64,000 bases of DNA, taken from positions 95,752 through 159,751 of the forward strand of contig JAFSVJ010000028.1 in assembly GCA_017445025.1 (NCBI GenBank), read 5' to 3'. The DNA is from Abditibacteriota bacterium (GTDB lineage Bacteria; Armatimonadota; UBA5829). Positions 17,441-62,350 of the stretch are shown here, piece after piece. The notes below the pieces were generated by a model that saw only the letters and a program-made list of their open reading frames with translations, ran no database searches and was not told where the DNA came from. Numbering within the stretch: position 1 is the stretch's first letter; every line of letters starts with the position of its first letter. The position numbers and the translations under genes are program-made.

Positions 17441-17534
17441 ATTTTTCTCCTATCTTAGTTTGATAAAAATATCAACTGTCAAGATTTTCTTGACAGTTGA
17501 TACACAGTAAAAGTATTCTATGTATGGATATTAA

Positions 17535-17690
17535 TCAATTCTTCTTACATTAGAGATTTGAACTTCTACTGTTGCATATTCCGCAAATAAAAGTCTTCTT
17601 GCATTAGTTTCACTTGAAGCTGTATAAGTTTTAACTTGTATACCCGGAATACCTTTAACTCTATACCTAATCTCATAAGTATGCATAACA
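17535..17690 (-). CDS. Small protein (51 aa), not present in the ORF track.
   Basis: ATG preceded by GGAAGGTGA. Translation: MHTYEIRYRVKGIPGIQVKTYTASSETNARRLLFAEYATVEVQISNVRRID. Confidence 0.35.
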
Positions 17691-17710
17691 TTCACCTTCC
17701 TATAATTTTA

Positions 17711-17926
17711 TTATCGCCATTCGATATAAGCATGTATATGTTCATGACAATGAGAACAATTTACAGTTGGTCCACCATGTCCTAAATAAGTAAAAGGGTG
17801 TTTTGCTGACATTACACGACCGCATTTAGGGCATACTACAACAAGGTATCCATGTCTACCATCAAAGCTTACAATTTCGCAATTAATGCAAACAGGTTCT
17901 TTATCCATTATTTTTCTCCTTCGCAT
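17711..17926 (-). CDS. Small four-cysteine zinc-ribbon protein (71 aa).
   Basis: CINCEI…CPKCG…CSHCHEH. Ribosome-binding site AAGGAG. Confidence 0.55.
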   Translation of the reverse strand: MRRRKIMDKEPVCINCEIVSFDGRHGYLVVVCPKCGRVMSAKHPFTYLGHGGPTVNCSHCHEHIHAYIEWR

Positions 17927-18091
17927 ATTTCTATGCTTTAAAATTAGTTTTTATTGGTTAGAACAAGTAAAATTTCCTTACATAACCATATATATTATAC
18001 TCAAAAAAAAAAAAAACGCAAGTTTTAAGACATAAATGGTGAAAAAAATAAAAAAATTTCATTTCGGGGCAAATAAAAAGCAAAAATAGAT

Positions 18092-18244: not shown

Positions 18245-19845
18245 TTTTTATAAAGAATCACCCCCCTAACGCAGTGCGACAACTGTTTTTTTTCGGACAA
18301 TTACATAAAGATTTGTTTAGTTAGTGGGTAAGACTTTAAATTTCGCGCCATAAGTGCTTTTTAGATTGTAGATTGTTGAACAAAAAAAGCCTTTTGTTTA
18401 CGGAAATCTAAAACCTTACGTAATCACTTTAGACATCAGTCTTTAATACCGAAATCGTTTAGGTTCTTTATCATTATTATGACTAAAACAGAAATTTATC
18501 TCCGGAATTTCCATTTCTGTTCCTTCATAATACTTTGAATACATTTGGAATGTAGTCATATTAGTGTTTGTATATTTTCGTTCATAATTATAATAATGCA
18601 TCCATTCTTCTATTCCTTTATTGAACACTTCAAGTGTTTCAAACTGGCGTTGATTATAAAACTCATCTCTAAGAACGTGATAAAATTGTTCAATAAAGGG
18701 ATTATCTGTGCTTTTATAGGGACGGCTGTGACTTTGCTTTAAACCTAATTTCTCTAAATAATTATGAAAGCCATAAGTGCGATATATTCCCGCTCTATCT
18801 GAATGAAATATACCATCGGTGATCTTAAAAGGTAAAGCTTTTTCTAATAGTTTTAGGGTTTCATTTGCCAGATCGGAATTTTCATGAAATGAAGTGTGAA
18901 AACATATTATCATACGGGAATAATAATCCATAACACAAGATACTTTTATTATGCCAAAGCTATATTCCAACTTAATAACATCGGTGCAAAAGTATCTTAA
19001 AGGTTCATTTGCTCTAAAACCTGTTTTAATTAATCGTTCACATGCCGGCATCCTATCTTTTGTTAAGGATTTATTCTTGCAGCGACTCTCTTTTTTGGTT
19101 AAAAGCAGTCCTTCTTTTTTGGCAATTTTATAGACCTTTTCTTTATAAGTTTTAATACCATAGTCTTCGTAAAGAATAGAAACTAAAGCTTTGCAACCAC
19201 GATATATCTTTCTACGTTCTCGTATATCATGTAAAGCTAAACGAATCTTTTCGTCAATCGGATCTTGTGGCTTTTCCTCTTTAGGCTTATCGTTATCATA
19301 AAAGGTAGAACTTGGTATTTTAGTATGTTTAAACAACATTGTTTTTGTAAAAAATTCTTGATATAAATTGACTATAAAAACCTTAACATCATTTTTTATC
19401 TTTGTCTTTTTTTTTTCAAGAACATTAAATGCTGTGTTAACACAAAGCTCACAATCTAAATCTTTTATGATTTCAATTAATTCTTTTTGGGATTTATTTT
19501 CTAATTGTTTAAGATCAATGGGTTTTCTAAATTCAGCTTCATTTTTCTTTTTTTCTTTGTTAAAAAAGCTCATTGGACCTTTATCCTTATATTGACTAAC
19601 CCAAGAACGAATTGTTTTTCCGCCAGGCTTAGTTTGATTGGGAAGCAATTTTCTTGCAGTTTGCTTAAATGAAAGAAAATGCTCTCTCATATATATTATA
19701 GCATATATTTTGTATTCTGGCGAATAATAAGCCCTCTTTTGTGGCTTTTTTGAGATTTTGCTATCCATTAATTTTCCTCCTATTTGTCCGAAAATTAACA
19801 GATAGCACACGCAGTAGGGGGGGGACTGATTGTCAATCATAGCCA
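18245..19845 (-). mobile_element. Insertion sequence (~1.6 kb) with ~40-bp imperfect terminal inverted repeats (TTGTCCGAAAA..CAG…GC..TAGGGGGG.TGATT) at 18250-18310 and 19780-19840.
   Basis: The inverted repeats were found by comparing the reverse complement of the left end with the right end. A transposase ORF lies between them. Confidence 0.65.
18443..19768 (-). CDS. DDE transposase with an rve/integrase core (IS3/IS481 superfamily), encoded as a single ORF.
   Basis: 'HSDRAGIY' and 'SRPYKSTDNPFIEQFY' match the rve catalytic-core signatures (HSDRG…, SR.G…DNA..E). N-terminal helix-turn-helix. Start placed at the internal 'MDSKISKK' so that the CDS lies inside the right inverted repeat. Confidence 0.75.
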   Translation of the reverse strand: MDSKISKKPQKRAYYSPEYKIYAIIYMREHFLSFKQTARKLLPNQTKPGGKTIRSWVSQYKDKGPMSFFNKEKKKNEAEFRKPIDLKQLENKSQKELIEIIKDLDCELCVNTAFNVLEKKKTKIKNDVKVFIVNLYQEFFTKTMLFKHTKIPSSTFYDNDKPKEEKPQDPIDEKIRLALHDIRERRKIYRGCKALVSILYEDYGIKTYKEKVYKIAKKEGLLLTKKESRCKNKSLTKDRMPACERLIKTGFRANEPLRYFCTDVIKLEYSFGIIKVSCVMDYYSRMIICFHTSFHENSDLANETLKLLEKALPFKITDGIFHSDRAGIYRTYGFHNYLEKLGLKQSHSRPYKSTDNPFIEQFYHVLRDEFYNQRQFETLEVFNKGIEEWMHYYNYERKYTNTNMTTFQMYSKYYEGTEMEIPEINFCFSHNNDKEPKRFRY

Positions 19846-19884
19846 AGTATAAACTTTGGATGCCCGACAAACTTTAAATTCCAT

Positions 19885-23054: not shown

Positions 23055-23271
23055 AAACAAAAAAATACAAATCATCCAAAAGCACAATTTTTTATAAGCA
23101 ATTTTGAGTGTAGTCGTCGACTGTAGACTCGCAGAATAAGGTTATTTTTAAAGGCAAAAGCCATTTAAAAATGTCCTTAGGCGAGAATCGTCAAGGAGAC
23201 ACGAAACGAAAAAGTGCGTTAAATAAAAAATTAGGGATTTTGAGAGGAGTTGTGATTTTATGTTTTTAATA
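23055..23271 (+). mobile_element. MITE-like element (~217 bp, degenerate ends) inserted at the mannosidase/SDR gene junction and flanked by ~70-bp direct repeats (22987..23054 and 23272..23343).
   Basis: The direct repeats each contain the 3' end of the mannosidase gene plus the 5' end of the SDR gene. The internal sequence is homologous to 4483..4702 and 44695..44909. Confidence 0.7.
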
Positions 23272-26246: not shown

Positions 26247-26441
26247 ATTCAGCCCCCCCACTATGTAAGGGGTTGAATTGCAGCAATCTCGGGGTCCCCA
26301 AAAAGCCCTGCGAATAGCGAAAACAACCCAAGGGATCCCGAAAAGTCGTAGCATAGCAAGACTTTTTGGGAATGGGTTTTAGGGGTGAGAAATAAGCATC
26401 GCTTTTTTGTAAAAACGCCCAAGGCACCCCGTCATTATTAT

Positions 26442-26660
26442 AATCAAAAATAGAAAATCAAAAATCAAAATTGAAAGTGCTAACCTTTAAGAGCAACTGA
26501 AAAGTTAAGAGCCGGCTAATTGGATTATTAATTATTAATTTTAAAAATAGGGGGCGAACCGGCGTGCAAATTTAAAAAGGCGTCTATAAAGCTTAGAGCC
26601 CACCAACATAAGTGGTGCGTAGCACCACGAATTTTGATTTTCTATTTTTGATTTTTGATT
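26442..26660. mobile_element. MITE-like element with ~30-bp terminal inverted repeats (AATCAAAAATAGAAAATCAAAAATCAAAATT / AATTTTGATTTTCTATTTTTGATTTTTGATT) enclosing ~155 bp that includes a GTGGTGCGTAGCACCAC hairpin. The right inverted repeat overlaps the last codons of hydE.
   Basis: Inverted repeats verified by reverse complement. The internal segment 'GCTAACCTTTAAGAGCAACTGAAAAGTTAAGAGCCG' is shared with 46240-46275. Confidence 0.6.
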
Positions 26661-27685
26661 ATATTTCTTGCGTGGCCTTGATCTATAGATACTTGACGAT
26701 TGCAAGAAATTATAAGATCTTTAATTGTAGATAAGATTGTATCCGTGTTTTCGGAGATACACTTTTTTCCGGGGTAAATTTCATATAATATCTTATACTT
26801 TTGAGGAGTAAAGTTAATCATAATAACATCACATCCCACGCTCAAACCTTTCTTATAACCTTCATTACCTATGGTTGCAAGGGCTGTGGTTGCAGGCATA
26901 AGAGCGGTTTTTGTTATTATTCTCACCAGTGCCAACATTTTAAGAGTCAAAAAAACATCTCCGTTAGGCTCACCCTTAAAAGGTGTATGTTCATGCATAA
27001 CATAAGGACCTATTCCCACCATTTCAGGTTTGAAATCTCTTATAAACTCCAAATCTTCAGCCAAATATTCTGTCTTCTGTCCCGGAGAGCCCACCATACA
27101 CCCTACCCCGGTTTGATAACCTAATTTTTTTAAATTTCTCAAACATTCAAGCCTTGTGTCCAAAACTCCGTCAGGGTGCAAATATTTATAATGTTCCTTG
27201 TTGGCGGTTTCATGTCTCAACAGATACCTGTTAGCTCCGGCCTCTTTCCAAAGCTTATAAGTTTCAAAAGAATGTTCCCCAAGGCTTAAAGTCACAGCCA
27301 TATCAGTGTTAGATTTTATTTCCCTTATTAAATCTGCCAAATCAAAAGGATTATAGGTCTTGCTTTCCCCACCTTGCATAACTAAGGTTTTTACACCTTT
27401 TTTATCCATATCAAGAGCAATTGAATATATCTCCTCTATGGGCATTTTATACCTTTGAACAAGATCATTATTTGCCCTTACACCGCAATAATTACAATTA
27501 CGAGCACATATATTGCTTATTTCCAACAAACCTCTTATTTGAACCTTTTCACCACAATAATCCTTTCTTATTTTATCGGAAAGACTAAATAAAGAAACAG
27601 CCTCATCCGAATTTAAAGACAAGGCCTCTATTAAGTCATTTTTGGTATAATTATTTGATTTTATTTTATTTAGTAAATTATTCAT
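26642..27685 (-). CDS. hydE: Radical SAM protein of the BioB/HydE type, likely the [FeFe]-hydrogenase maturase HydE.
   Basis: 'CARNCNYCGVRANND' radical-SAM Cx3Cx2C motif. About 350 aa. Adjacent to a HydG-like gene. Confidence 0.55.
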   Translation of the reverse strand: MNNLLNKIKSNNYTKNDLIEALSLNSDEAVSLFSLSDKIRKDYCGEKVQIRGLLEISNICARNCNYCGVRANNDLVQRYKMPIEEIYSIALDMDKKGVKTLVMQGGESKTYNPFDLADLIREIKSNTDMAVTLSLGEHSFETYKLWKEAGANRYLLRHETANKEHYKYLHPDGVLDTRLECLRNLKKLGYQTGVGCMVGSPGQKTEYLAEDLEFIRDFKPEMVGIGPYVMHEHTPFKGEPNGDVFLTLKMLALVRIITKTALMPATTALATIGNEGYKKGLSVGCDVIMINFTPQKYKILYEIYPGKKCISENTDTILSTIKDLIISCNRQVSIDQGHARNIIKNQK

Positions 27686-34153: not shown

Positions 34154-35182
34154 TTATTGCCACATTTTGAGAAAATCATCGGTGATTTTCTGCTCCGTTT
34201 CCTCTTCTTCTTTTTTCTTTAAATATTCATTGACAAAACCTTTGTAAAGTCTTGTTTCAAAATTAGTCTTATTGTTCTTTGTGAAAGCATCGTCAGATTT
34301 GTCGCCTTGAACCAAATTAACAAAATAATGAACTTTAAAACTTATTTCATCTGCCAAGTGAAGAACCATTGCTTCTAAGGTGCAGGGGACTTTCGGAGAA
34401 CCATATTCCAACTTTCCATGATGAGACAATATCATGTGAGATATAATTCCGCAAAACTCCTCATCCAAACCAAGTTCCTTACAAGCCTCCATTGCCATGG
34501 AAGCACCCATTACCAAATGGCCTATAAAATGACCTTCATTGGTAAACTCTATTCCGGACTTAATCTTATACTCCCTTATCTTTGCCATATCATGAAGGAG
34601 AGCACCCGTTATCAACACATCTCTTTTAATGATTTCATAATAAACTGAGGCTACCTTGTCTGCCACGTTACACACATCCAAAGTATGTTCCAAAAGACCT
34701 GCCACATAAGCATGGTGAAAAGTCATAGCCGCCGGAGCCTCTATAAACTTATTATAAAAAGACTGATTATCAAAAAAATAATGCAAAAGCTTTTTACAAT
34801 TCTCATCCTTTACAGACACAATGATATTATTCAGCTTTTTCTTCATATCATTAATATCTTTTGGACTGGAAGCCAAGAAATCTGCACAATTGCAATTTTC
34901 ACTTGTCTTGGCAATGGAATCCACCCTAAATTGCAAATTTCCGTTATAATCATTTACCAATCCCGTAATATTATAATACTTTCCTTCCACGAGGTCATCA
35001 AACTCATTCTCTGAGGAAATATTCCATTTCTTACCGTCTATCTCACCGGTTTTATCCACAAGTTTTAAACTTAAATATTGATTGTCATTTTTCCCCACAC
35101 ACAATTGTTTATGTGTCAGCAAAAATATATCATTTATTTTTTCCCCTGATAAAAAATCTTTTATAAATTTGGTTTTTGGCAT
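34154..35182 (-). CDS. yhaM: OB-fold plus HD-domain 3'-5' exoribonuclease of the YhaM type
   Basis: N-terminal OB fold and HD motif ('HHAYVAGLLEHTLDV'). Confidence 0.6.
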   Translation of the reverse strand: MPKTKFIKDFLSGEKINDIFLLTHKQLCVGKNDNQYLSLKLVDKTGEIDGKKWNISSENEFDDLVEGKYYNITGLVNDYNGNLQFRVDSIAKTSENCNCADFLASSPKDINDMKKKLNNIIVSVKDENCKKLLHYFFDNQSFYNKFIEAPAAMTFHHAYVAGLLEHTLDVCNVADKVASVYYEIIKRDVLITGALLHDMAKIREYKIKSGIEFTNEGHFIGHLVMGASMAMEACKELGLDEEFCGIISHMILSHHGKLEYGSPKVPCTLEAMVLHLADEISFKVHYFVNLVQGDKSDDAFTKNNKTNFETRLYKGFVNEYLKKKEEEETEQKITDDFLKMWQ

Positions 35183-35194
35183 ATTATATTCCTT

Positions 35195-36592
35195 TTATTT
35201 TCCAATACAAAATTGTGAGAAAATATAGTCAAGTATATCTTCGGTTGTAGTCTCTCCGGTAATCAAACCCAGTTGATACATGGCATCCGTCAAATCTATT
35301 GCCACACAATCAAGTTCCATACCGTTCTCATTGCTTTCTTTAGCCAACAAAAGAGATTTAACAGCTTTTTTAATTGCGTCAAGATGCCTGTTGTTGGTAA
35401 TCATTAAGTCTTCGCTGCCCACAAAATCTTTGATATATTCATATATAATTGTTTTTAATTTTTCAATTGAAGAAGGTTCTTTAGCACTGATTGTGACAAA
35501 ATTTAAAATATCATTGTTCTTATATGTCAACTTATCAACAGAAGCTAAATAATCTTTGTATTCATTAATAATTAACGGACAAGATATATCTTCTTTATTT
35601 ACCACAAATAAAATATCTTTACTAAAAGTTAAAATATGCGAAAGAATATACTTATCTTCCTCGCTTATCTCTCTTGATCCGTCAAAAACCATTATAATCA
35701 AATCAGCTTCTTCCGATACGGAAAGAGATCTTAAAACACCTTCTCTCTCTATCACATCTTCCGTGTCTCTCACTCCCGCAGTATCACTTATAACCACAGG
35801 AACGCCCTTTATATCCAAACTCTCCGTAATTATATCACGAGTAGTGCCCGGAATATCCGTCACTATAGCTCTTTGACTGTCCAATAGTCCGTTTAAGATG
35901 GAAGATTTTCCCACATTGACACATCCTACCAAACTGACCTTCATTCCGTCTCGAAAATAATAAGACTTTTGATTGGTATTAACAATATTTTCCAAATAAT
36001 CTATTATTTTTGAAAAACTTTTATCCAAATCTTCTCTCTCCGGCTCAAGCACATCTTCCGGGAAATCAATGTTAGCTTCAATAGATGCCCTAATATCCAT
36101 AATCTCTTTATTGATTTCCTTCATTTTCATGCCGAGAGAACCTTTCAGTTGAGAGAGAGCAATTTGTTTACTTCTTTTGGTTTGGGATTTGATTAAATCG
36201 TTTACAGCCTCTGCTTGGGAAAGATCCAATTTCCCATTCAAAAAAGCACGTTTGGTAAACTCTCCGGGTTCAGCAATAACAGCACCGGCTTCCAAAAGAG
36301 AATTAATGATCTCCTCCACAATAATTATATTACCATGGGAAGAGATTTCAATCACATCTTCTCCCGTATATGAATGAGGACCTTGAAATTTGGTAATGAC
36401 AATGTCATCAATTGTTTTTCCTTCAAAATTAAAAAAGTTGCCGTGTAGAATTGTTCTCGGAGCTTGGTTAATAACATCCTCTGAAAATAGCTTATTAACT
36501 ATTTCAAAGCTTTTATCACCACTTACTCTAATAACACTCATACCACCACTGCCTTGTGGAGTGGCTACGGCAACAATAGTATCATTTAGCAT
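35195..36592 (-). CDS. mnmE: tRNA modification GTPase MnmE
   Basis: N-terminal 'IVAVATPQGSGGMSVIRVSG', G-domain, and the C-terminal 'CIGK' motif. Confidence 0.9.
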   Translation of the reverse strand: MLNDTIVAVATPQGSGGMSVIRVSGDKSFEIVNKLFSEDVINQAPRTILHGNFFNFEGKTIDDIVITKFQGPHSYTGEDVIEISSHGNIIIVEEIINSLLEAGAVIAEPGEFTKRAFLNGKLDLSQAEAVNDLIKSQTKRSKQIALSQLKGSLGMKMKEINKEIMDIRASIEANIDFPEDVLEPEREDLDKSFSKIIDYLENIVNTNQKSYYFRDGMKVSLVGCVNVGKSSILNGLLDSQRAIVTDIPGTTRDIITESLDIKGVPVVISDTAGVRDTEDVIEREGVLRSLSVSEEADLIIMVFDGSREISEEDKYILSHILTFSKDILFVVNKEDISCPLIINEYKDYLASVDKLTYKNNDILNFVTISAKEPSSIEKLKTIIYEYIKDFVGSEDLMITNNRHLDAIKKAVKSLLLAKESNENGMELDCVAIDLTDAMYQLGLITGETTTEDILDYIFSQFCIGK

Positions 36593-36634: not shown

Positions 36635-37348
36635 TTAATTATCCTTCGGAGAGATTATAACATGTCTCTCCATGCCTTCGCCTTCTGAGTAAGTTTTAAC
36701 ACCCTCATAATTGCGAAGAGCCATGTGAACAATTCGTCTGTCATTGGCACTTTGAGGCTCCATAACAGCTTCTCGTCCGTGCTTAACTACCATTTCAGCT
36801 ATCTTTAAAGCCCTTTCTTGTAATTCTTTGGTTCTCTTGGCTCTGTGACCGTCGGCATCAATTACTATTCTTCTTTTACAAGGGTATTTCTTATTGGCAA
36901 TAATACAGGCAAGATATTGAAGAGAATCCAAAGTTGCACCAAATTTACCGATTAATATTGCTATATCTTCACCCACTATGTTAAAAGCAATACGGTCTTC
37001 TGTCACAGTATCAATAATCAAATTAACCTTGATACCCATTAGTTCAATGGTTTTTTCTATAAACTCTTTAGCTGTGTCAAAGAAAATATCTTCATTTGAT
37101 TCTTCTTCCACCAATACAGGCTTTTCTTCAGGTTCCCCCTCTTCCTTTGTAATGGAAACAGGAGTTGCAGGAGAGGGAGCTTCTTTTTTACTTGCTTCTA
37201 TAACTACTTTGCTTCCTAAACCCAAAAAACCTTTTACTTCTTCTACAACTGAATATTCTATCAAAGAAACGGGAGCACCTAAGGCTTCGCCTGCCGAAGC
37301 AAGTGCGTCCTCAAGATTAGAACCTTCAAATTTTTGTTTTTCGTCCAT
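36635..37348 (-). CDS. jag: Jag/KhpB RNA-binding protein (KH plus R3H domains)
   Basis: R3H motif 'SANDRRIVHMALRNYEGVKTYSEGEG'. Sits in the conserved yidC-jag-mnmE context. Confidence 0.8.
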   Translation of the reverse strand: MDEKQKFEGSNLEDALASAGEALGAPVSLIEYSVVEEVKGFLGLGSKVVIEASKKEAPSPATPVSITKEEGEPEEKPVLVEEESNEDIFFDTAKEFIEKTIELMGIKVNLIIDTVTEDRIAFNIVGEDIAILIGKFGATLDSLQYLACIIANKKYPCKRRIVIDADGHRAKRTKELQERALKIAEMVVKHGREAVMEPQSANDRRIVHMALRNYEGVKTYSEGEGMERHVIISPKDN

Positions 37349-37369: not shown

Positions 37370-38581
37370 TTATTTCTTATTATTCTTTTCTTCTTTCGGT
37401 AATTCTTTTACTTTTGTTTCGCTTGTTCCGTTCTCTTCATCATATTTCTTATAAAACATTTTCTGTTGAATGGTTTGGAAAATGTTAAACACAAGCCAAT
37501 AAAGTAAGAATGCACTGGGGAACCCGGCAAACAAGAATGCGAACATTATGGGGAACATGTAGCTCATCATTTTTTGTTGGTCTGCCTGCTGCTTGTCGGC
37601 AACGGGAGTATTCATTTTCATAGAAACGAAAGTTGAAATAATGTATATAACCAAAAGTATTAAGTCTGCTTCTGCAAGATTTGCACCACAAAACCAAACA
37701 ACTTGTCCCGGCTGTCCCAAAACATTTAATGAGAAGTGATGTTCAAAAGTTGAACCTATCCACAAAAATGTTCCCTTTTGGAATTGAATTTCATAAGATT
37801 TTATAACATAAAATAGGAAGAAGAGAATAGGCATCTGTATTAACAAAGGCAAACAACCACTCAAAGGGTTTATATTATGCTCTTTGTATAAAGCCATAGT
37901 CTCCTGACCTAATTTCTGTTGATCGTCTTTATATTTCTCTTGAAGAGCCTTTATCTTAGGCTGAATCTTCTGCATCTCCTTCATAGATCTCATTTGAGTA
38001 TTAAAAAGAGGAGTTAGGACAATCTTAACCACAATGGCTATCAAAACAATGGCAAACCAATAAGAAAACCCCGGTTTTGAGCCTGTCAACTTAACGAGAA
38101 AATCAATTATCTTATAATTAAGTTTTTCAGAATTTTGCTTATCAAGAAGCAACCCCACTTCCTGTTTTTTCTCTTTGATTTCTACAACTTTGTTCTTAAT
38201 CTCTCCGATTTCTTTTGTGGTAAACCCGGCTTTATCCAATTCGGCATCAGTTCTATCCCAACGAACCACAAGCATTTTCAAAGCTTCATAAGCTCTTTGA
38301 GTTTGTTTGGGGTCTCCTGATGCTGCTTGAATTTTGGCAAGTTCATATTGAGCATATATAGCTTCCGGAGTATCTTTGGTTTTCTTGTTTTTAAGAATAT
38401 CATTAAAACATTCGGAAGCCTCAGCTTGAAGTTCCTTTTTCTCAGAGGATGACTGAGAAGCCTCAGCCTTTTGTACATACTCCATTCCCTTGTTGTATAG
38501 TTCTTGAGATTTTGTCTCATCTGCAAAAACACCAACTGACAAGAATAGAATAAAACATATAAATAAAAATCTTAATTTCAT
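37370..38581 (-). CDS. yidC: Membrane protein insertase YidC/Oxa1 family with an N-terminal TPR-like periplasmic region
   Basis: 'LPLLIQMPILFFLFYV' YidC core, and gene context. Confidence 0.75.
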   Translation of the reverse strand: MKLRFLFICFILFLSVGVFADETKSQELYNKGMEYVQKAEASQSSSEKKELQAEASECFNDILKNKKTKDTPEAIYAQYELAKIQAASGDPKQTQRAYEALKMLVVRWDRTDAELDKAGFTTKEIGEIKNKVVEIKEKKQEVGLLLDKQNSEKLNYKIIDFLVKLTGSKPGFSYWFAIVLIAIVVKIVLTPLFNTQMRSMKEMQKIQPKIKALQEKYKDDQQKLGQETMALYKEHNINPLSGCLPLLIQMPILFFLFYVIKSYEIQFQKGTFLWIGSTFEHHFSLNVLGQPGQVVWFCGANLAEADLILLVIYIISTFVSMKMNTPVADKQQADQQKMMSYMFPIMFAFLFAGFPSAFLLYWLVFNIFQTIQQKMFYKKYDEENGTSETKVKELPKEEKNNKK

Positions 38582-38689
38582 TAAATAACCTTATAATATA
38601 ATTCTTAACATATCCATGTAAAAGTTTGGGAAAGGGCACTTGTTATTTACCATTTTTAAATAGATTTGCTACGCAAATCATTTTTCTTC

Positions 38690-38960
38690 TTATTATCGCA
38701 AAATCGTTCCGCACCCCCCGCCGTTTTTGACAGTTTTCCTACGGAAAACACCAAAAACGACTACAGGGTGGGGGGTCTATAAAGGGCTCCCGAAAAGTCG
38801 TAAGACTTTTTGGGAATAATGCCCTATGGGGATGGGGGCCCGACTTCGGGGCTACCCCCCTCCGGCTCCCCCCTATATGCCTTCTAGTATAGGCTGGTCA
38901 ACAGAATTTTACCCCCATAGGGGGGGAGAGAGTGGTGCTCCTACATTACCATTTCCCTTG
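38690..38960. repeat. GC-rich, G/C-run-rich repeat mosaic inserted between yidD and yidC (CCCCCC/GGGGGG runs and a CCCGAAAAGTCGTAAGACTTTTTGGG hairpin).
   Basis: Composition clearly differs from the AT-rich background. It contains copies of the hairpin families seen elsewhere in the window. Confidence 0.5.
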
Positions 38961-39088
38961 ACTAAAGTATCTATCCACCATAGCCCACCTTAAAAATTAG
39001 GGCCCGGTAACCTAAGTGGTGCGAACCACCACAAGTTTGATTTTCTATTTTTTGATTATTGATTTTAAATTTGCCATTGGCAAATTTA

Positions 39089-39316
39089 TTATTTCACGGG
39101 GTCATCTCCCCCTTTTGACCATGGGTTGCAACGAATTATTCGCCATATTCCCAATAAAGAGCCTTTAAGAACTCCATATTTTTCAATAGCTTGAGCCGTA
39201 TATTCGGAACAAGTGGGATGAAAACGACAAGTTGGTGGCAAAAACTTTCTTGAAAAAGGTTGATAACATCGTCTTATAAGAAAAAGACAAAATTTCTTAA
39301 TCACCTGTGACCCCAT
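39089..39316 (-). CDS. yidD: Membrane protein insertion efficiency factor YidD
   Basis: '[19 protein letters not shown]…[16 protein letters not shown]'. Confidence 0.85.
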
Positions 39317-39644
39317 TTAAAATTCCGACTTTGCTTAATAGACTGTCCAAACTCATCTTTAACCTTCTATAGTCCTTTTCTTTTGCCCCCTTAAGAACTA
39401 CAATAACCGCTAAATATGGCTTCAAGACCTCAAGCTCAAGATAAATAATCTCCGAAAGCCTACGCTTTATTTTGTTTCTTTCACAGGATTTTCCGTATTT
39501 TTTGTTAATAGAAAAACCTACTTTAAAACAATAACTTTTCGGATAAAAGTAAAGAACAAAATCTTCATTTGCTACTTTTTTTCCTTTTCTGTAAACAAAC
39601 GAAAACTCTCTGTCCTTTCTGATACGATTTTCTTTACAAAGCAA
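39297..39644 (-). CDS. rnpA: Ribonuclease P protein component
   Basis: Basic protein in the rpmH-rnpA context ('[24 protein letters not shown]'). Confidence 0.85.
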
Positions 39645-39719: not shown

Positions 39720-39854
39720 TTAAACGGTCAGTGACCATCTTCCTTTTTGGCGTCTGTTGGCAAGGACTTTTCGCCCACCCTTAGAAGCCATTCTTGCCAT
39801 AAAACCATGAACTCTGTGCATCTTACGGTTTTTGGGCTGATATGTTCTTTTCAT
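39720..39854 (-). CDS. rpmH: 50S ribosomal protein L34 (44 aa; not in the ORF track)
   Basis: Translation: [44 protein letters not shown]. Confidence 0.9.
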
Positions 39855-40146
39855 TATAACCTCCATAAAAAGACAATCATTATAAATTATATCACAAATC
39901 GGGCTCTTTTGTCAAATTATACAAAAAAACTACCTGTTAATAATATAAAAAAACCACATCTAATGTCTCTAACAAATTAAATTTTCTCTAAAAATTGTAT
40001 ATTAATATAAAAATGTAGTATAATAATATTAGGTGTATTAAATTTAAAAATTATTAATTATATTTTTATTCATATTTATAGAAAATAACTTGTTTATATT
40101 AGGTGTCACTTTTTATAATCTATTGACATATTAATAGGAGGCTTTT

Positions 40147-43984: not shown

Positions 43985-44614
43985 ATGTTTACCGGAATAG
44001 TTGAAGAAATAGGAAAAATAGCTTCAATTAATGTTGGAGTTGTTTATGATTTAATTATAAAATGCCCCATAACGGCACCAAAATGCTCCATAGGTGACAG
44101 CGTAGCCGTAAACGGTATATGTCTTACTGTGACAAAAATAAAAGGTGATTTACTCTCTTTTAATGCCGTGAGAGAAACCATAAGCAGAACCTCTTTAAAA
44201 GAATTAAAAGTGGGAAGTGAAATAAACCTTGAAACTGCTCTGACTTTATCTAAACCCATAGGAGGCCATTTGGTTTCAGGTCATATTGACGGAGTGGGAT
44301 TAATTTCAAACATTCTCAATGTTGGTGACTCAAAGGAAATAACCTTTTCTGCGGGAAAAGATATTTTAAAATATATTATAGAAAAAGGATCTGTTTGTAT
44401 TGACGGGATATCCTTGACTGTAGCATCGGTCTCTTCGGACAGTTTTAAAGTTGCCTTTATACCGCACACCCTTGAAAATACTTCCCTTAAAAGCAAAGGC
44501 ATTGGTTCAAATGTCAATATCGAATGTGATATAATAGGAAAATATGTGGAAAAATTACTCAACAAAAGTAGTGAAAAATCACTGATTGATTTATTGAAAG
44601 AAAACGGATTTTAA
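43985..44614 (+). CDS. ribE: Riboflavin synthase alpha subunit
   Basis: 'MFTGIVEEIGKI'. Confidence 0.85.
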   Translation: MFTGIVEEIGKIASINVGVVYDLIIKCPITAPKCSIGDSVAVNGICLTVTKIKGDLLSFNAVRETISRTSLKELKVGSEINLETALTLSKPIGGHLVSGHIDGVGLISNILNVGDSKEITFSAGKDILKYIIEKGSVCIDGISLTVASVSSDSFKVAFIPHTLENTSLKSKGIGSNVNIECDIIGKYVEKLLNKSSEKSLIDLLKENGF

Positions 44615-44748
44615 TGGATTTTATAATAAATGATTTTGAATTTGCGACAATAGAAGATGCAATTAAAGATATACAACAAGGTAAAATGTTAATTTTTAAA
44701 ATCACAAATCACCAAAAAGATCAATTTTTCGCAAGAAATATGGAATGA
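44614..44748 (+). pseudogene. Duplicated 5' fragment of ribBA (first 27 codons) that reads into the inserted MITE and terminates.
   Basis: 'MDFIINDFEFATIEDAIKDIQQGKMLI' is about 90% identical to the true ribBA start at 44913. Confidence 0.6.
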
Positions 44749-44909
44749 AGTCGTCGACCGTAGACTCGGAACAAAATGTTTTTTTTCAAGGCATTAGCCA
44801 TTGATAAAATGTTATTATGTGAGAATCGTCAGGAAGACACGGAAAGACATATTTCGTTAAGCGAAAAAATAGAGATTTTTAGGGGAGTTGGGTTTTTAAA
44901 AATAAAAAA
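44695..44909 (+). mobile_element. MITE-like element (~215 bp) inserted at the ribE/ribBA junction and flanked by ~84-bp direct repeats (44611..44694 and 44910..44993).
   Basis: Direct repeats read from the sequence. The insert is homologous to 23055..23271 and 4483..4702 ('GAAGTCGTCGACCGTAGACTCGG', 'GAGAATCGTCAGGAAGACACGGAAAG'). Confidence 0.7.
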
Positions 44910-44912
44910 TTA

Positions 44913-46130
44913 ATGGATTTAATAATGAATAATTTTGAATTTGCGACAATAGAAGATGCAATTAAAGATATACAACAAGGTAAAATGTTAATCGTTGCTG
45001 ATGATGAAGATCGAGAAAACGAAGGCGATTTCATAATGGCTGCGGAAAAAATAACCCCTGCAGATGTAAATTTTATAACAAAATACGGAAGGGGATTGGT
45101 TTGTTGCCCAACCACAGGAGAAAGATTGGAAGAATTAAAACTTCCTATGATGGTTCAAAACAATACAGCTCCTTTAGGAACAGCTTTTACAGTAAGTGTA
45201 GACGCTCTCAAAGGAACAACCACAGGAATTTCTTGCAATGACAGAGCCATAACCCTAAATGCTATGGCAAATCCAAACACTAAGCCTGAGGATTTGGGAC
45301 GTCCCGGTCATATTCACCCTCTCAAAGCCAAGGATGGGGGCGTGTTGGCAAGAGCGGGACATACGGAAGCTGTGGTTGACCTGTGTAAATTGGCAGGTTT
45401 ACATCCCACCGGTGTCTTATGCGAAATACTTAAAGAGGACGGCACTATGGCAAGGGTGCCGGATTTGATTGAAATATCAAAAAAATTTAATTTAAAATTT
45501 ATAACCATTGCAGAAATAATCAAATACAGACGAAAACACGAAAAACTGGTAAAGAGATCTGCGGAATGTCACCTTCCTACCGAATATGGAGATTTTAATA
45601 TGATTGCATACGAAACATCCATAGAAGCAGACCCCTATATAGCTTTAACAATAGGAAATATAGCTGACGGTGAACCTTGTTTGGTTCGGGTTCACTCAGG
45701 ATGTTTTACCGGCGATGTTTTAGGCTCAAAACGATGTGATTGCGGTGACCAACTACACAAATCAATGGAAATGATTGCAAAGGAAGGCAAAGGAGTTGTG
45801 GTTTATATTCAACACCACGAAGGACGAGGGATTGGCCTTATAAATAAATGCAAAGCTTACAAACTGCAAGAAAAGGGAAGAGACACTGTAGACGCCAATT
45901 TAGAATTGGGCTTTCCCGCAGATATGAGAGATTACTCATTAGGCGCACAAGTCTTAATGGACTTAGGCGTCACAAAAATGAGACTTTTAACTAATAACCC
46001 AAAGAAATATGTTGGACTTTCCGGATACGGATTGGAAATAGTGGAAAGAGTGCCTATTGTAATAAAACCAAATGAAATTAATAAAGATTATTTGGAAACA
46101 AAGAAAGAGAGAATGGGACACTTATTGTAA
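44913..46130 (+). CDS. ribBA: Bifunctional 3,4-dihydroxy-2-butanone-4-phosphate synthase / GTP cyclohydrolase II
   Basis: 'RENEGDFIMAAE', 'RVHSGCFTGDVLGSKRCDCG'. Confidence 0.9.
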   Translation: MDLIMNNFEFATIEDAIKDIQQGKMLIVADDEDRENEGDFIMAAEKITPADVNFITKYGRGLVCCPTTGERLEELKLPMMVQNNTAPLGTAFTVSVDALKGTTTGISCNDRAITLNAMANPNTKPEDLGRPGHIHPLKAKDGGVLARAGHTEAVVDLCKLAGLHPTGVLCEILKEDGTMARVPDLIEISKKFNLKFITIAEIIKYRRKHEKLVKRSAECHLPTEYGDFNMIAYETSIEADPYIALTIGNIADGEPCLVRVHSGCFTGDVLGSKRCDCGDQLHKSMEMIAKEGKGVVVYIQHHEGRGIGLINKCKAYKLQEKGRDTVDANLELGFPADMRDYSLGAQVLMDLGVTKMRLLTNNPKKYVGLSGYGLEIVERVPIVIKPNEINKDYLETKKERMGHLL

Positions 46131-47683: not shown

Positions 47684-47781
47684 ATGATTTGGACTTGTCT
47701 TATCTATGCTTTTCCTTGAAAACAGGATAAGAGAATTAATTTTGCTACGCAAAATGTGATTTTTTTCAAAAATCACTTATT

Positions 47782-47841
47782 CCCCCCGTCATTCACTACG
47801 TGAATGCCACCCCCCATTTTGCTTCGCAAAATAGGGGGACA
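47782..47841 (+). repeat. C/G-clamped double-hairpin element, copy 4.
   Basis: CCCCCCGTCATTCACTACGTGAATGCCACCCCCCATTTTGCTTCGCAAAATAGGGGGACA. Confidence 0.7.
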
Positions 47842-56920: not shown

Positions 56921-57664
56921 CTATTGATAGTAAGCAGGATCCCAATATTGGCAATTATCCCCCCAAGATTCCAAATAAACAGACGGACCGCTGTGCCTTT
57001 TGTTATATTTTGCATGTCCATCACAATATGTAATGTTCATACCATCATTGTGCCTATTAGGTTGAGAATAACTGCCACCTGTCACAACATCACCGCAAGC
57101 AATTACCGGTGCCATTACAAAAGCACCCTGAGACCAAGGTTCAGCAGTTTGAACCAGTGCATCACAACAAAATACAATCTCTGAAACATTACTTATTCCG
57201 GATAAAGAATAAGGGTTGCATCCTGAAGCAACATCTATTGAGTTATATCCATGATTTAACATTATATTAAAGCCATAACCGTTAAACTTTTTGTTAAGAG
57301 AAGGACAATTAAAAATATTAACATTTTTAACATATGGGAATATAGAATCCATCCAAGTCCAACTATAAGAAACGTTTATAACCCAAGCTGTTGTTCTTAA
57401 TTTTGTAAATGGATATCCGGGCCAATTTGCCACGTCAGCATCAGTATACATACTGAGCCTTGAGTCACAACATGGTGGGACAGTCTCCTCAAAATCGTCT
57501 ATATAGAGTTGCAATGCCGTCCCAATCTGTTTAGTATTGGATAAACAATTTGCAGCTCTTGCCTTTTCCCTTGCCTGTGCAAACACAGGAAACAATATTG
57601 CTGCCAGAATAGCTATAATAGCTATCACTACCAACAACTCGATTAATGTAAAAGCTTTCTTCAT
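56921..57664 (-). CDS. Prepilin-type N-terminal cleavage/methylation plus H-X9-DG protein; paralog 3.
   Basis: '[40 protein letters not shown]'. C-terminal '[17 protein letters not shown]'. Confidence 0.8.
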
Positions 57665-57695
57665 TTTTTTACCTCTCTCATTTTCCTACTTGTAT

Positions 57696-57726
57696 TAATA
57701 AGTTTTTAATACAAGTATGATATATT
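57696..57726. promoter_or_regulatory. Candidate operator palindrome TACTTGTATTAA-TAAGTTT-TTAATACAAGTA between the promoter and the ribosome-binding site of pilin-like gene 3.
   Basis: 12-bp perfect arms. Confidence 0.5.
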
Positions 57727-57754
57727 TTTTTGCTTTACAATAATAATTATATCA

Positions 57755-57783
57755 CATTTTCATCAAAATGTCAAGGTTTTTTT
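57755..57783 (-). promoter_or_regulatory. Sigma70-type promoter for pilin-like gene 3 on the minus strand: -35 TTGACA (57778-57783), a 17-nt spacer, and an extended -10 TGATATAAT (57755-57763).
   Basis: Consensus hexamers. Confidence 0.55.
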
Positions 57784-57913
57784 AAGTAAAAAATTCAAAA
57801 AATTCAAAAAATCGAAAAAAAGTTATTATAATAAATTAAGTTATAACTTGATTTTTTTTTATAAATATAGTATAATAATATATGATAACTTATTAGTATA
57901 AATCAGGTATAAT

Positions 57914-58945
57914 ATGAATAAAAAGGATATAGTTATAAAATATATTGAAGAAAACATAAACAATGGTAAATGGAAGGTCGGCTCCAAAATTTTCTCAGAA
58001 AATCAATTAATTGATTATTTGGGAGTTTCCAGAGTGACCATTCGTTTAGCCATAAATGAATTGTGCAATAAAGGCGTCCTTGAAACTCGCCAAGGAAGCG
58101 GAACATATATCAAAGGACAATACACAAACCCGGGAAAATATATTATCATATTAACAAGTATAGGTGCTGTAACGGGAGACACCAATTATATTTACAGATA
58201 TTTTATAGACTTATTGGAAAAATATATTAAAAGTTTGGGATACTCACCTATAGCTTATGTGGGAAATCCGGATATTAACATAGAAGAGGGTCTTGCAAGC
58301 AAACTAAATGACATCGGAGGGATCATATTTCTTTACGGACTCCAAAAAGACTTAGATGTGCTTAATATGCTTAACATCCCCATTATTTCTTCCTTAGGTG
58401 CATTTAGCAATTTTTGTCCGGGAGTTCTATTAGACTATACGGATTTAATCTACAAAACAGACTACCTTTTAAAAAAATATAATTATAAAGAAGTTATTAT
58501 TTTTAAAATCAATCAAAACAACAAAAAACATGTTAAAGAAAATCTTGTTTGGCTTGCCATGGACAGTTTCTTTTCTAATTATCATGTTGTAAATATGCCC
58601 ATATCCTACGACCACAATATGAAGGTAGATATTTTTAAAAGCACTATCTCAAAAATCAAAAAGTCTCCGGACTGTATTGTATTTATGGATGATACCATAT
58701 ATCTTACTGCCTCTCCATACTTTCAAAAATATCATAACATTTTAAAAGATACCAAAATTATAACCCACTCCTCAGGAAATTTGGAAACCACAGATGTTTA
58801 TAAAATCTGTAAAATAGAATTTAATTTAGATAAGGTTGCAAAAGAAACCGTAAACCTAATTGACAAAAGAATAAATAAAATTAATTTTAATGAATATAAC
58901 ATTTATATTAAACCTAAAGTTATAAATGAAGAAAACTTAATTTAA
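57914..58945 (+). CDS. GntR-family transcriptional regulator with a sugar-binding-like domain; paralog 3 (more divergent than the other two).
   Basis: 'SENQLIDYLGVSRVTIRLAINELCNKGVLETRQGSGTYI'. Confidence 0.7.
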   Translation: MNKKDIVIKYIEENINNGKWKVGSKIFSENQLIDYLGVSRVTIRLAINELCNKGVLETRQGSGTYIKGQYTNPGKYIIILTSIGAVTGDTNYIYRYFIDLLEKYIKSLGYSPIAYVGNPDINIEEGLASKLNDIGGIIFLYGLQKDLDVLNMLNIPIISSLGAFSNFCPGVLLDYTDLIYKTDYLLKKYNYKEVIIFKINQNNKKHVKENLVWLAMDSFFSNYHVVNMPISYDHNMKVDIFKSTISKIKKSPDCIVFMDDTIYLTASPYFQKYHNILKDTKIITHSSGNLETTDVYKICKIEFNLDKVAKETVNLIDKRINKINFNEYNIYIKPKVINEENLI

Positions 58946-59391
58946 AAAAAGCAAAAATTATAATCCTGTTTTAAAATTTTAAAGTTTACAAAGCAAAATA
59001 AAATGTGGGTGCAGACTTTTTGGGATTTGGTGCTACGTAATGGGCTCCATTGCGGCAAAAAAGCCTCAGTTGTTAGATTCACCCTCCTTAAACTAAAATT
59101 TGCAAATTTTCTTTTAAGGAGGGGGGACCATTCGCAAAGCGAATGGTGGGTGGTCAGGAATATATTTGCATAGAATTGCAAATTTATGCATTCACTCGCT
59201 TGCGAGATAGAAGCCTAATAATTTAAACCAACAACCCAAGTTCAATTCCCAAGGGGTCCCGAAAAGTTGAAGCATCTGCGAAAACTTTTTGGGAATGGGA
59301 AGGAGGGGTATAGATAGAACAAGCCTTAAGCTTATCGTTTATTTTGCATTCTGCATTTTTCATTAAAAAAAAGCCCTTTTCAGGGCTTTTT

Positions 59392-62328: not shown

Positions 62329-62350
62329 TTTTCTGCTTTATACTTAATAT

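Follow-up and report, generated by a model that had tools for sequence, protein, structure and literature searches.

A probable REP/BIME-like mosaic of palindromic repeats in the yidD-yidC spacer of an Abditibacteriota genome

In an Abditibacteriota bacterium, yidD and yidC are separated by 507 bp of DNA that is probably a lineage-specific mosaic of palindromic DNA repeats, similar in kind to REP/BIME elements, and not a conserved RNA gene. The spacer consists of a chain of about nine (8–9) hairpins of 13–64 nt each, approximately one third is accounted for by repeat families that are also present in other intergenic regions of the window, it is absent from relatives, and it differs in a near-identical strain. 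Turnover at this site is suggested by one strain comparison, namely that with L001. All coordinates given here refer to the window, i.e., the complete 64-kb stretch of DNA that was analyzed.

The operon is encoded on the minus strand in the order rpmH-rnpA-yidD-yidC-jag-mnmE, as judged from open reading frames (ORFs) and Pfam matches, and comprises rpmH (39720–39866, ORF calling), rnpA (39297–39644, Pfam Ribonuclease_P, 1e-24), yidD (39089–39316, 75 aa, PF01809 YidD, E = 3e-27), yidC (37370–38581, 403 aa, 60KD_IMP, E = 8e-55), jag (36635–37348, Jag_N/KH/R3H) and mnmE (35195–36592). In the operon direction, yidD lies upstream and yidC downstream of the spacer (38582–39088), and the YidC of the window is 100% identical to the protein entered as 'MAG: membrane protein insertase YidC [Abditibacteriota bacterium].' The genes and the layout agree with a first-pass annotation of the sequence, which had described a spacer of about 500 bp within rpmH-rnpA-yidD-yidC, the exact size of the gap being 507 bp.

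The central part of the spacer (38690–38960) has a GC content of 0.524, which is reached by only 0.09% of 271-bp windows (mean over the window, 0.344), and its 100-bp profile ranges from 0.51 to 0.58. The GC-rich center described in the first-pass annotation is thus borne out (52% vs. 34% GC), while the background of ~30% GC quoted there has to be corrected to 34%. The claim that the spacer is dense in C6/G6 runs is likewise sustained, as five runs of six or more G or C are found, compared to 1.46 ± 1.04 in 1000 dinucleotide shuffles, four of which reach five. The spacer contains 5 of the 27 runs of this type present in the 64 kb, and 21 of the 27 are intergenic. Perfect hairpins with a stem of at least 7 bp number four in the spacer, against 0.31 ± 0.57 in the shuffles (0/1000 reach four), and occur in the window at 3.77 per kb of intergenic and 0.69 per kb of coding DNA. 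Three motifs that had been quoted previously were located at 38836–38852, 38789–38814, and 39016–39032.

The yidD-proximal 94 bp (38995–39088) constitute a gene-end module, of which 4–5 copies exist within the 64 kb and which aligns with sequence at 13266, 18066, 26596, and 46125. Its first hairpin (39066–39088, either strand; TAAATTTGCC-AAT-GGCAAATTTA) has a perfect 10-bp stem (−8.9 kcal/mol) and begins at the first base past the yidD stop codon, and members of the same family are located just past other stop codons (4392, 11766, 13271, and 16410). The linker that follows (39033–39065, minus strand) is A-rich and of the AATCAAAAA type (T-rich on the plus strand), and belongs to family D6/D16 (alignment A3), which is also present at 13284, 18075, 26439, and 46133. 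The second hairpin (38995–39032, minus strand) consists of GTGGTGG-TTC-GCACCAC and a conserved tail, TTAGGTTACCGGGCCC; it matches 16493–16526 (I23), is 90% identical to 26609–26649, and aligns with 13317, 18108, and 26612 (alignment A3).

A second repeat family is represented by the 47-nt D8 module (38780–38826, plus strand), AGGGC-TCCCGAAAAGTC-GTAA-GACTTTTTGGGA-ATAAT-GCCCT, which scores 58.5 bits with covariance model R1 (E = 3e-17) and whose G.T wobble indicates the plus strand, so that it runs antisense to the operon. According to the same model, the family has five strong copies in the 64 kb, including the CCCGAAAAGTCGTAAGACTTTTTGGG hairpin of the spacer, the others being located at 15007, 26328, and 59249 on the plus strand and at 2089–2141 on the minus strand. 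The adjoining long compound hairpin (38713–38776, either strand; inverted repeats I12 and I24) has a folding energy of −27.7 kcal/mol on the minus strand and is built from an outer C6/G6 clamp (ACCCCCCGCC/GGTGGGGGGT), a middle segment (CGTTTTTG/CAAAAACG) and an inner GTTTTCC-TAC-GGAAAAC. This architecture recurs in units at 4383, 11758, and 14706; the likeness to repeats is one of architecture only, with no second copy of the sequence in the 64 kb, in the relatives or in JGI metagenomes. Closer to yidC, a hairpin of the class TTGC-N3-GCAA (38663–38679, either strand), GATTTGC-TAC-GCAAATC, with the loop GTA on the operon-sense strand, resembles hairpins at 47739, 47816, and 52447 as well as one in the relative L007.

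The central G/C-run-rich block (38827–38994, 168 bp, either strand) is a part of the spacer for which no second copy was found. It contains a G5…C6 hairpin holding GGGCCCGACTTCGGGGC (38830–38870), the hairpin CCTATA…TATAGG (38872–38893), the palindrome CCCCCATAGGGGG (38912–38924), a further hairpin on the plus strand (38923–38958), and a 10-bp long-range pair between 38822–38831 and 38913–38922. The block is repeat-like in architecture only, has no match in the window, the relatives, or the Clostridia loci considered below, and a 23-mer of it, GGGGGCCCGACTTCGGGGCTACC, yielded 0 matches in JGI metagenome contigs. At the other end of the spacer lies the yidC leader with its AAGG ribosome-binding site (38582–38612, minus strand), which is shared with strain L001. 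A promoter-like TTTACA-16-TATATT upstream of yidC (38595–38622, minus strand) is a weak lead, given its overlap with the ribosome-binding site and the lack of conservation of the −35 hexamer in L001. Overall, ~30% of the spacer has demonstrable copies elsewhere (38780–38826 and 38995–39088, plus the generic hairpin at 38663–38679), and many intergenic regions of 250–550 bp in the window are composed of the same kinds of unit. A pile-up of the repeat families of this genome, one of two origins proposed in the first-pass annotation, is accordingly what the copies of the gene-end module and of D8 point to, with the remaining hairpins being built as in the long intergenic regions.

The normal adjacency of yidD and yidC stated in the first-pass annotation is borne out within the clade. 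In eight relatives with YidC proteins of 60–88% identity the gap is 13–127 bp, and in five of them 13–18 bp: it measures 17 bp in L008 (YidC 88%) and in L102 (84%), 18 bp in L004-6 (83%), 13 bp in L103 (80%), 36 bp in L009 (60%), 104 bp in L003 (75%), and 127 bp in L007 (82%). None of the eight has any spacer sequence in common with the window. The view that this is an unusual place for an insertion is correct in general, but needs to be qualified, as other junctions of the same operon are also colonized in the clade: in L007, 293 bp separate rnpA from yidD, 166 bp yidC from jag, and 410 bp jag from mnmE. The L007 junctions would represent independent colonization of the operon, and an AT-rich expansion is found in L104.

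Strain L001 is 99.35% identical to the window over yidC, yet the BLAST alignment stops at 38610, ~29 bp upstream of the start codon, and beyond this point L001 bears a different unit, C6-GTC-hairpin-GAC-C6. The leader is the sole part of the spacer common to both, with an exact 21-mer at 38578–38598. As it is a GC-rich hairpin unit, and not yidD, that is located ≤77 bp upstream of yidC in L001, a long repeat-filled gap must be assumed there too. A search for other strains of the species, using a 33-mer across the yidC start, returned 0 matches in JGI metagenomes.

The second origin put forward in the first-pass annotation was a structured RNA lying antisense to the operon. More generally, the GC-rich center could be a free-standing structured ncRNA gene, sense or antisense, that is flanked by repeats. 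Its folding indeed beats that of shuffled sequence on both strands (when the whole spacer is folded, z = −3.7 for the minus strand and z = −5.1 for the plus strand), the central 168 bp are unique, D8 keeps its G.U wobble on the plus strand, and three plus-facing terminator-like hairpins could end an antisense transcript (within 38400–39400, the four terminator-like sites predicted all face the plus strand, and the spacer contains three of these). Such a gene is nonetheless quite improbable. When both strands of 38300–39400 were searched against Rfam at E ≤ 1, the only match was a spurious one to mir-957 (18 bits vs. a threshold of 66), which corresponds to the long compound hairpin at 38713–38776. 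Across the whole window, Rfam at the gathering threshold detected one tRNA, outside the spacer, and ARAGORN found no tRNA or tmRNA in the gap. Because the spacer is missing in the eight relatives and differs in the 99.35%-identical strain, there is no conservation or covariation to count. The folding signal stems from local DNA palindromes that can fold on either strand, and that both strands fold about equally well is what is expected of DNA palindromes. Nor are promoter-like sites enriched (5 vs. 2.4 ± 1.9 expected, not significant). The proposal of a structured antisense RNA thus finds no support here; an unconserved antisense transcript may still exist. Being directly upstream of yidC, the spacer might instead act as a cis-regulatory leader, working by attenuation, as a riboswitch, or through an arrest peptide that senses insertase activity in the manner of MifM; in Bacillus subtilis, leader-based control of the YidC paralogue (yidC2) by MifM is established. 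This is very improbable for the present spacer, as its ORFs are ≤55 aa and of low plausibility, those on the minus strand are ≤40 aa and have no membrane segment, and a MifM-like leader peptide was rejected because no plausible leader ORF exists. The ribosome-binding site is preceded by ~70 nt of AT-rich sequence that is part of no stable hairpin, Rfam gives no riboswitch match, and the relatives lack a leader (gaps of 13–18 bp in five) and share no sequence with the spacer.

It is also unlikely, although less so, that part of the length or content of the spacer is an assembly artifact, such as a chimeric join induced by repeats or a repeat that was collapsed or expanded when the metagenome-assembled genome (MAG) was built. 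The L002 contig ends at 38765 and L001 diverges at ~38610, so that no independent contig spans 38610–38765 and the exact content of this segment rests on one assembly; moreover, the yidC contigs of most close relatives are only 1.5–3 kb long. On the other hand, L002 confirms that 38765–39088 is contiguous with yidD at 99.9% identity, yidD followed by yidC is the conserved gene order, and L001 likewise has a GC-rich hairpin unit, rather than yidD, upstream of yidC. That independent assemblies break inside the spacer, as is typical of repeats, is in favor of the mosaic reading. A decayed mobile element, for instance an integrative mobilizable one of which only hairpins resembling an oriT or a single-strand origin, such as D8, are left, appears to be as improbable as an ncRNA gene. 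D8 of Clostridia is positioned upstream of relaxase genes (in 9/9 relaxase-bearing loci) and near ParA/ParB and serine recombinase genes, and forms the first stem of a conserved multi-hairpin element of ~130 nt. However, the window and the Clostridia loci have the 34–42 nt hairpin alone in common and nothing around it, and the four other D8 copies of the window lie between housekeeping genes, which is the behavior of a dispersed repeat. No gene remnants are found around the spacer, and neither terminal inverted repeats nor a target-site duplication are present at its ends, the sole end-to-end inverted match (38659–38669/39080–39090, 11 nt) being the ATTTGC/GCAAAT core of two small palindromes.

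Under the repeat-mosaic reading, small palindromic repeats would have piled up at the yidD-yidC junction of a single lineage, in a low-GC Abditibacteriota genome whose intergenic regions are commonly occupied by units of this kind, and the spacer would work in the manner of the REP/BIME clusters of enterobacteria or the BOX elements of pneumococci. Seen in the operon direction, a standard gene-end module (AAATTTGCC hairpin, A-rich linker, and GTGGTGC hairpin) that abuts the yidD stop codon comes first, followed by a chain of GC-clamped hairpins, in which the G6/C6 runs are the stem bases and one member is the 47-nt unit in reverse orientation, and finally by the ~30 bp of conserved yidC leader. 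The units may have spread by insertion or duplication, possibly by means of an enzyme acting on hairpins of single-stranded DNA, whereby an ancestral tight coupling of yidD and yidC (13–18 bp) would have been broken. Expression of yidC could now occur by read-through or from a new promoter. Read-through would be permitted by the lack of a canonical terminator in the sense direction: no Rho-independent terminator facing the operon direction was predicted between yidD and yidC (38400–39400), and the sequence that comes after the GTGGTGG hairpin on the sense strand, UUAGGUUA, has 4 U in 8 positions. At the RNA level, the hairpins might give the upstream rpmH-rnpA-yidD message 3′-end or stability barriers of the kind that REPs provide.

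REPs are short (20–40 bp), imperfect extragenic palindromes that are found either alone or combined into mosaic clusters in which several families are mixed, with gene 3′ ends and the intervals between genes of one operon as frequent locations (PMC3733652, PMC6006769), and that carry a conserved tetranucleotide, GTAG (or CGTC), at one end of the palindrome (PMC3733652). Known effects of REPs are protection of mRNA 3′ ends and partial termination, and a REP hairpin within ~15 nt of a stop codon lowers translation (Liang, Rudd and Deutscher, 2015, cited in PMC6006769). The palindromes of the spacer are similarly extragenic and strain-variable in content, and the yidD stop codon is immediately followed by the first of them. 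Unlike in REPs, the GTAG/CGTC tag is missing at the stem base, where the units are flanked by AGGGC/AAGGAG or G/C runs, and GTAG is found inside some loops only (e.g., GCGTAGC). Furthermore, the spacer chains different sequences instead of alternating the orientation of one unit with defined linkers, a constant arrangement of parts is seen in the gene-end module alone, and the stems are A/T tracts clamped by G/C runs. Since the host genome has 34% GC, the units stand out as GC-rich islands. No REP-associated tyrosine transposase (RAYT, Y1_Tnp) was seen in the 64 kb: none of the 40 ORFs scanned against Pfam encodes a Y1/HUH transposase (12 mapped ORFs being outside the scan), and the one transposase detected in the window is of the rve type. 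An ORF flanked by long inverted repeats (1358–1870) was considered as a RAYT and discarded, as it is a nitroreductase by Pfam.

BOX elements of Streptococcus pneumoniae (boxA-boxB-boxC) are described in PMC3049150 as modular intergenic repeats of a low-GC genome, variable in the number of sub-modules, predicted to form stable RNA structures, and located near or inside operons. The spacer resembles BOX as a set of modular intergenic repeats in a low-GC genome, but has no sequence relation to it, and while BOX follows a fixed A-B-C grammar, a grammar is evident only in the gene-end module of the spacer. MITEs, such as the Correia/NEMIS elements of Neisseria and the Rickettsia palindromic elements, are non-autonomous, intergenic, hairpin-forming, strain-variable, and co-transcribed with their neighbors, and are single units of 100–400 bp that are bounded by terminal inverted repeats and flanked by target-site duplications, neither of which the spacer possesses.

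The value of the repeat-mosaic reading is mostly negative, in that a candidate structured RNA is removed and an odd gap in a textbook operon would be accounted for by repeat colonization. The junctions of rpmH-rnpA-yidD-yidC, which normally measure about a dozen bases, appear to tolerate several hundred bases of hairpin DNA, and such expansion would have occurred repeatedly and independently within one little-studied clade. From this tolerance it would follow that tight coupling to yidD is dispensable for yidC expression in the clade. No description of repeat families of Abditibacteriota/Armatimonadota was found in the literature, and searches on Abditibacteriota repeats and Clostridiales MITEs returned nothing specific.

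The D8 hairpin is not confined to this genome. At least 90 stretches of genome DNA contain it, the majority of which come from Clostridia of the gut and rumen (~0.4 chance matches estimated), and a D8 29-mer is identical in L016, L017, and L042. The general form is AGGGC-TCCCGAAAAGTC-(GNRA or GNA loop)-GACTTTTTGGGA-AAGGAG; a G.U/G.T wobble is conserved, and the stem shows compensatory changes. In the nine relaxase-bearing Clostridia loci it precedes the relaxase gene by 61–824 nt on the same strand, and in Clostridia it also adjoins ParA/ParB and serine recombinase genes; the orientation relative to neighbors is mixed over the 90 loci (naive ORF calls) and fixed only with respect to relaxase and ParA genes. 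A small peptide encoded after D8 in Clostridia was considered and dismissed, since the frames differ and a second hairpin with compensatory changes is conserved instead, as part of the ~130-nt multi-hairpin element. Rfam gave no match over the D8 hairpin in 18 Clostridia loci or, at E ≤ 1, in the L017 array; phage carriage was limited to two matches in IMG/VR and plasmid carriage to one in PLSDB, without annotation, and literature searches by sequence string produced chance primer matches only.

Tentatively, and with considerable doubt, D8 might be an undescribed, phylum-crossing ssDNA/RNA signal of mobilizable elements that later became REP-like; in such elements, it may serve as a single-strand origin, an accessory hairpin of oriT, or a regulatory RNA. 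With hairpin signals of mobile elements that act as single-stranded DNA, such as oriT inverted repeats and ssoA, D8 shares its strand specificity, marked by a conserved G.T mismatch and compensatory changes in the stem, and its position in Clostridia ahead of relaxase genes that lie on the same strand. A specific nick site is unlikely, because D8 precedes two unrelated relaxase families, MobA/VirD2 and Mob_Pre. Unlike oriT and ssoA, D8 of the window occurs as scattered single copies that have no mobility genes in their vicinity. If this reading were true, hairpins of conjugative elements would be linked to the origin of genomic palindromic repeats, and the near-identity of D8 with mobilizable elements of gut Clostridia bears both on that origin and on horizontal exchange between phyla. 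D8 occurs as solo dispersed copies and in tandem arrays in some genomes, including the Abditibacteriota genome and a Eubacteriales MAG.

The minus-strand operon rpmH-rnpA-yidD-yidC-jag-mnmE lies in a window of 64 kb with a GC content of 34.5%, and ORF calls place rpmH at 39720-39866, rnpA at 39297-39644 (Pfam Ribonuclease_P), yidD at 39089-39316 (Pfam YidD), yidC at 37370-38581 (Pfam 60KD_IMP), jag at 36635-37348 (Pfam Jag) and mnmE at 35195-36592. The encoded YidC has 100% identity to the NCBI entry 'MAG: membrane protein insertase YidC [Abditibacteriota bacterium]', and remoter homologues carry the label Armatimonadota. The non-coding gap between yidD and yidC comprises exactly 507 bases (38582-39088). 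The first-pass annotation had singled it out for a GC-rich centre, dense G/C runs and three hairpin motifs, and each of these was recovered: the motifs are located at 38836-38852, 38789-38814 and 39016-39032, the centre (38690-38960) has 52.4% GC, a value reached by only 0.09% of equal-sized windows, and of the 27 G6/C6 runs in the window the spacer holds 5, compared with 1.46 ± 1.04 in 1000 dinucleotide shuffles. Perfect hairpins with a stem of at least 7 bp number four in the spacer versus 0.31 ± 0.57 in the same shuffles, none of which reached four, and the spacer as a whole folds better than shuffled sequence (z = -3.7 for the minus and -5.1 for the plus strand). The feature is real.

Read in the direction of the operon, the spacer begins directly after the yidD stop codon with a perfect 10-bp hairpin, TAAATTTGCC-AAT-GGCAAATTTA (39088-39066), followed by A-rich sequence made of AATCAAAAA-like repeats (39065-39033) and the hairpin GTGGTGG-TTC-GCACCAC, whose tail reads TTAGGTTACCGGGCCC (39032-38995 with the tail). 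The next ~170 bp (38994-38827) hold several hairpins, the stems of which are clamped by G-runs and C-runs. A 47-nt module (38826-38780), likewise a hairpin, and a compound hairpin of 64 nt clamped on its outside by C6/G6 (38776-38713) come next, then the hairpin GATTTGC-GTA-GCAAATC (38679-38663) and, at the 3' end next to yidC, ~80 AT-rich bases including the yidC ribosome-binding site. Given this anatomy, the G6/C6 runs are hairpin stem bases and, because the units are DNA palindromes, the hairpins form on either strand.

Two readings had been offered for such a sequence, namely a structured non-coding RNA antisense to the operon and a pile-up of the genome's own repeat families. The RNA reading is unsupported, as the spacer is unconserved in relatives and a search of 38300-39400 on both strands against Rfam 15 (E <= 1) gave no real match, the only hit being a spurious miRNA match (18 bits versus a threshold of 66) that corresponds to the long compound hairpin; across the whole window, the Rfam gathering threshold and ARAGORN yielded a single tRNA, outside the spacer. 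The pile-up is supported by copies of the gene-end module and of the 47-nt family elsewhere in the window. In its yidD-proximal 94 bp the spacer repeats a compound module that is also present behind other genes (13266, 16405, 18066, 26596-26668 and 46125), with identical part order and a start mostly 0-30 nt past the stop codon. R1, a covariance model built for the 47-nt module and run on the window, found five strong copies (47-58 bits) at 38780-38826, 15007-15061, 26328-26382 and 59249-59305 (plus strand) and 2089-2141 (minus strand), and a further two weak ones. The long hairpin (38713-38776) has the same C6...hairpin...C6/G6 build as units at 4383, 11758 and 14706, with differing sequences. 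Many long intergenic regions of the window (250-550 bp) are packed with units of the spacer type, perfect hairpins being 5.5 times as dense in intergenic as in coding DNA (3.77/kb versus 0.69/kb). The central 168 bp have no second copy in the window, in 47 kb of relatives or in 600 kb of Clostridia loci, and their most distinctive 23-mer has no match in JGI metagenomes. The spacer is built at least partly from repeats of this genome, the uncopied central 168 bp being the main gap in the argument. Another intra-operon hairpin array is found at 47739-47832 between two co-directional genes, where two C6 runs accompany four perfect small hairpins in series (ATTTTGC-TAC-GCAAAAT, GTGATTTTT-TTC-AAAAATCAC, CATTCAC-TAC-GTGAATG and ATTTTGC-TTC-GCAAAAT).

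The expectation that yidD and yidC are normally closely spaced was confirmed on contigs encoding YidC relatives, in which yidD was found by tblastn. The gap measures 13 bp in L103 (80% YidC identity), 17 bp in L008 (88%) and L102 (84%), 18 bp in L004, L005 and L006 (83%), 36 bp in L009 (60%), 104 AT-rich bp in L003 (75%) and 127 bp in L007 (82%). L104 (82%) represents another kind of expansion at the yidC-upstream junction, with at least 308 bp of 13% GC (1-308) 5' of yidC and TTGACAATTG-type repeats instead of yidD. The spacer sequence is absent from all relative loci compared, L104 included; together with the short gaps, this indicates that the tight junction is ancestral and the 507-bp spacer lineage-specific. 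In L007, a 293-bp chain of small hairpins separates rnpA from yidD, and the yidC-jag (166 bp) and jag-mnmE (410 bp) junctions are also expanded, which shows the same process at other operon junctions. In L003 and L009 the operon order continues with mnmE, an OB/HD protein, DUF4446 and an ECF sigma factor. The window has its DUF4446 and sigma-factor genes at 61747-62872 instead, ~26 kb away from 34154-36592, and the sequence beyond mnmE has therefore undergone rearrangement.

Two near-identical contigs allow a comparison within the species. L001, with 99.35% identity over yidC, retains only ~29 bp 5' of the start codon, beyond which lies a different unit (reverse complement CCCCCCGTC-hairpin-GACACCCCCC) with the architecture of those at 4383 and 11758. 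L002 (99.93% identity) confirms the part adjoining yidD (38765-39088) and stops inside the long hairpin; as 38610-38765 is not bridged by any independent assembly, that stretch may contain an assembly error caused by repeats. The spacer is a mosaic of palindromic units, some of them from dispersed families, which were inserted in this lineage and differ between near-identical strains.

The 47-nt hairpin extends to another phylum. The pattern TCCCGAAAAGT-N(4-24)-ACTTTTTGGGAA matched at least 90 stretches in GTDB species genomes, where ~0.4 would be expected by chance according to our own estimate, and most of the matches listed are in gut or rumen Clostridia (Christensenella, Monoglobus, Oscillospiraceae); one Eubacteriales MAG has at least nine loci, with tandem arrays, and the spacer's 29-mer is identical in the loci L016, L017 and L042. 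The hairpin has the form AGGGC-TCCCGAAAAGTC-loop-GACTTTTTGGGA, with conserved flanks AGGGC and AAGGAG and loops that are mostly GNRA or GNA. Comparison of 119 distinct sequences gave changes on both sides at 7 of the 12 stem pairs, a count that leans towards structure since the collecting pattern fixed the outer stem; 93 of the sequences have G.U at the fifth pair. In Rfam scans of Clostridia loci the hairpin was not covered by any family, and it is rare in phage contigs (two matches) and plasmids (one). In all nine cases with a relaxase gene nearby (four MobA/VirD2-like, five Mob_Pre), the hairpin precedes that gene by 61-824 nt and shares its strand, and at ParA loci it is divergently upstream in four of five; at these loci it forms the first (5') stem of a conserved ~130-nt multi-hairpin element, the second hairpin of which also has compensatory changes. 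Possible roles of the hairpin are those of a single-strand origin, of an oriT accessory and of a regulatory element. Because 47 kb of sequence from other relatives in the Abditibacteriota yielded no copy, an origin in mobile elements of co-resident Firmicutes, followed by multiplication in this genome, is suggested, though not proven. Some Clostridia genomes also contain intergenic hairpin arrays in the style of those in the window, often beside tRNA or tmRNA genes (L016, 2700-3100; L017, 3360-3990, beside a tmRNA at 3986-4332; L041, 470-900, after a tRNA array; L077, 1-700) and with tandem copies of the hairpin just ~41 nt apart, hence such colonization of intergenic DNA is not confined to one phylum. 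The spacer itself is of modest interest, and the cross-phylum hairpin might repay more work.

Among known repeats, REP/BIME clusters and pneumococcal BOX elements come closest. REPs are extragenic palindromes of 20-40 bp, single or clustered, that carry a GTAG or CGTC tag and are often RAYT-linked (PMC3733652, PMC6006769). The spacer resembles them in size, location, clustering and strain variability, but it has no terminal tag, GTAG occurring inside loops only (e.g., GCGTAGC), and does not follow BIME grammar; terminal inverted repeats or a target duplication, as in a MITE, are likewise absent. It is therefore filed as REP/BIME- or BOX-like in its probable working, outside those families. The units would have spread via insertion or local duplication, and the 47-nt unit, with its strand polarity and its conserved G.T mismatch, would suit an enzyme that recognizes folded single strands, like REPs and IS200/IS605 ends. 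Among the 40 window ORFs scanned, none encodes an enzyme of that kind, and the sole transposase is rve-type (DDE; 18443-19870); its gene adjoins a 2-kb stretch that lacks any long ORF and carries several short minus-strand ones (16600-18000, minus strand).

For the operon, the ancestral yidC-yidD coupling would have been lost. On the sense strand no spacer hairpin is followed by a U-tract, and the four terminator-like sites detected in 38400-39400 (three within the spacer) are all oriented towards the plus strand, hence read-through from yidD is plausible. Upon read-through, the spacer hairpins could block 3'-exonucleases or cause partial pausing, as REPs do between malE and malF of E. coli. 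The first hairpin touches the yidD stop codon, and REPs placed in this way have been reported to make the gene before them less well translated (cited in PMC6006769). A promoter-like TTTACA-16-TATATT (38622-38595) overlaps the yidC ribosome-binding site; L001 does not preserve the -35 hexamer, and promoter-like sites are not enriched.

Other repeats are present in the window. An 83-bp direct repeat of 96% identity (44611-44693 and 44910-44992), covering the overlap of the riboflavin synthase end and the ribBA start, brackets a ~216-bp insert (44694-44909) of a ~200-bp family that has an inverted copy at 4492-4692, another copy at 23060-23257 and partial ones at 1123-1197, 1978-2052 and 2269-2313; the arrangement resembles that left by a MITE-like element inserting into the ribBA 5' end, with a repair that duplicated the gene start. 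A nitroreductase gene (PF00881, 1358-1870) between inverted repeats of ~300-450 bp (893-1197 and 1978-2328; arms of 98, 75 and 69 nt, 78-92% complementarity), which are put together from the window's small repeat families, may form a cassette flanked by repeats or a segment prone to inversion. A ~1.5-kb duplication of 70-83% identity (2322-3787 and 8279-9737) encodes a regulator of the GntR family and a DUF1559 protein that resembles type IV pilins and bears a methylation motif at its N-terminus; the divergent promoter region is part of the duplicated segment, and a third GntR and DUF1559 pair lies at 56921-58945.
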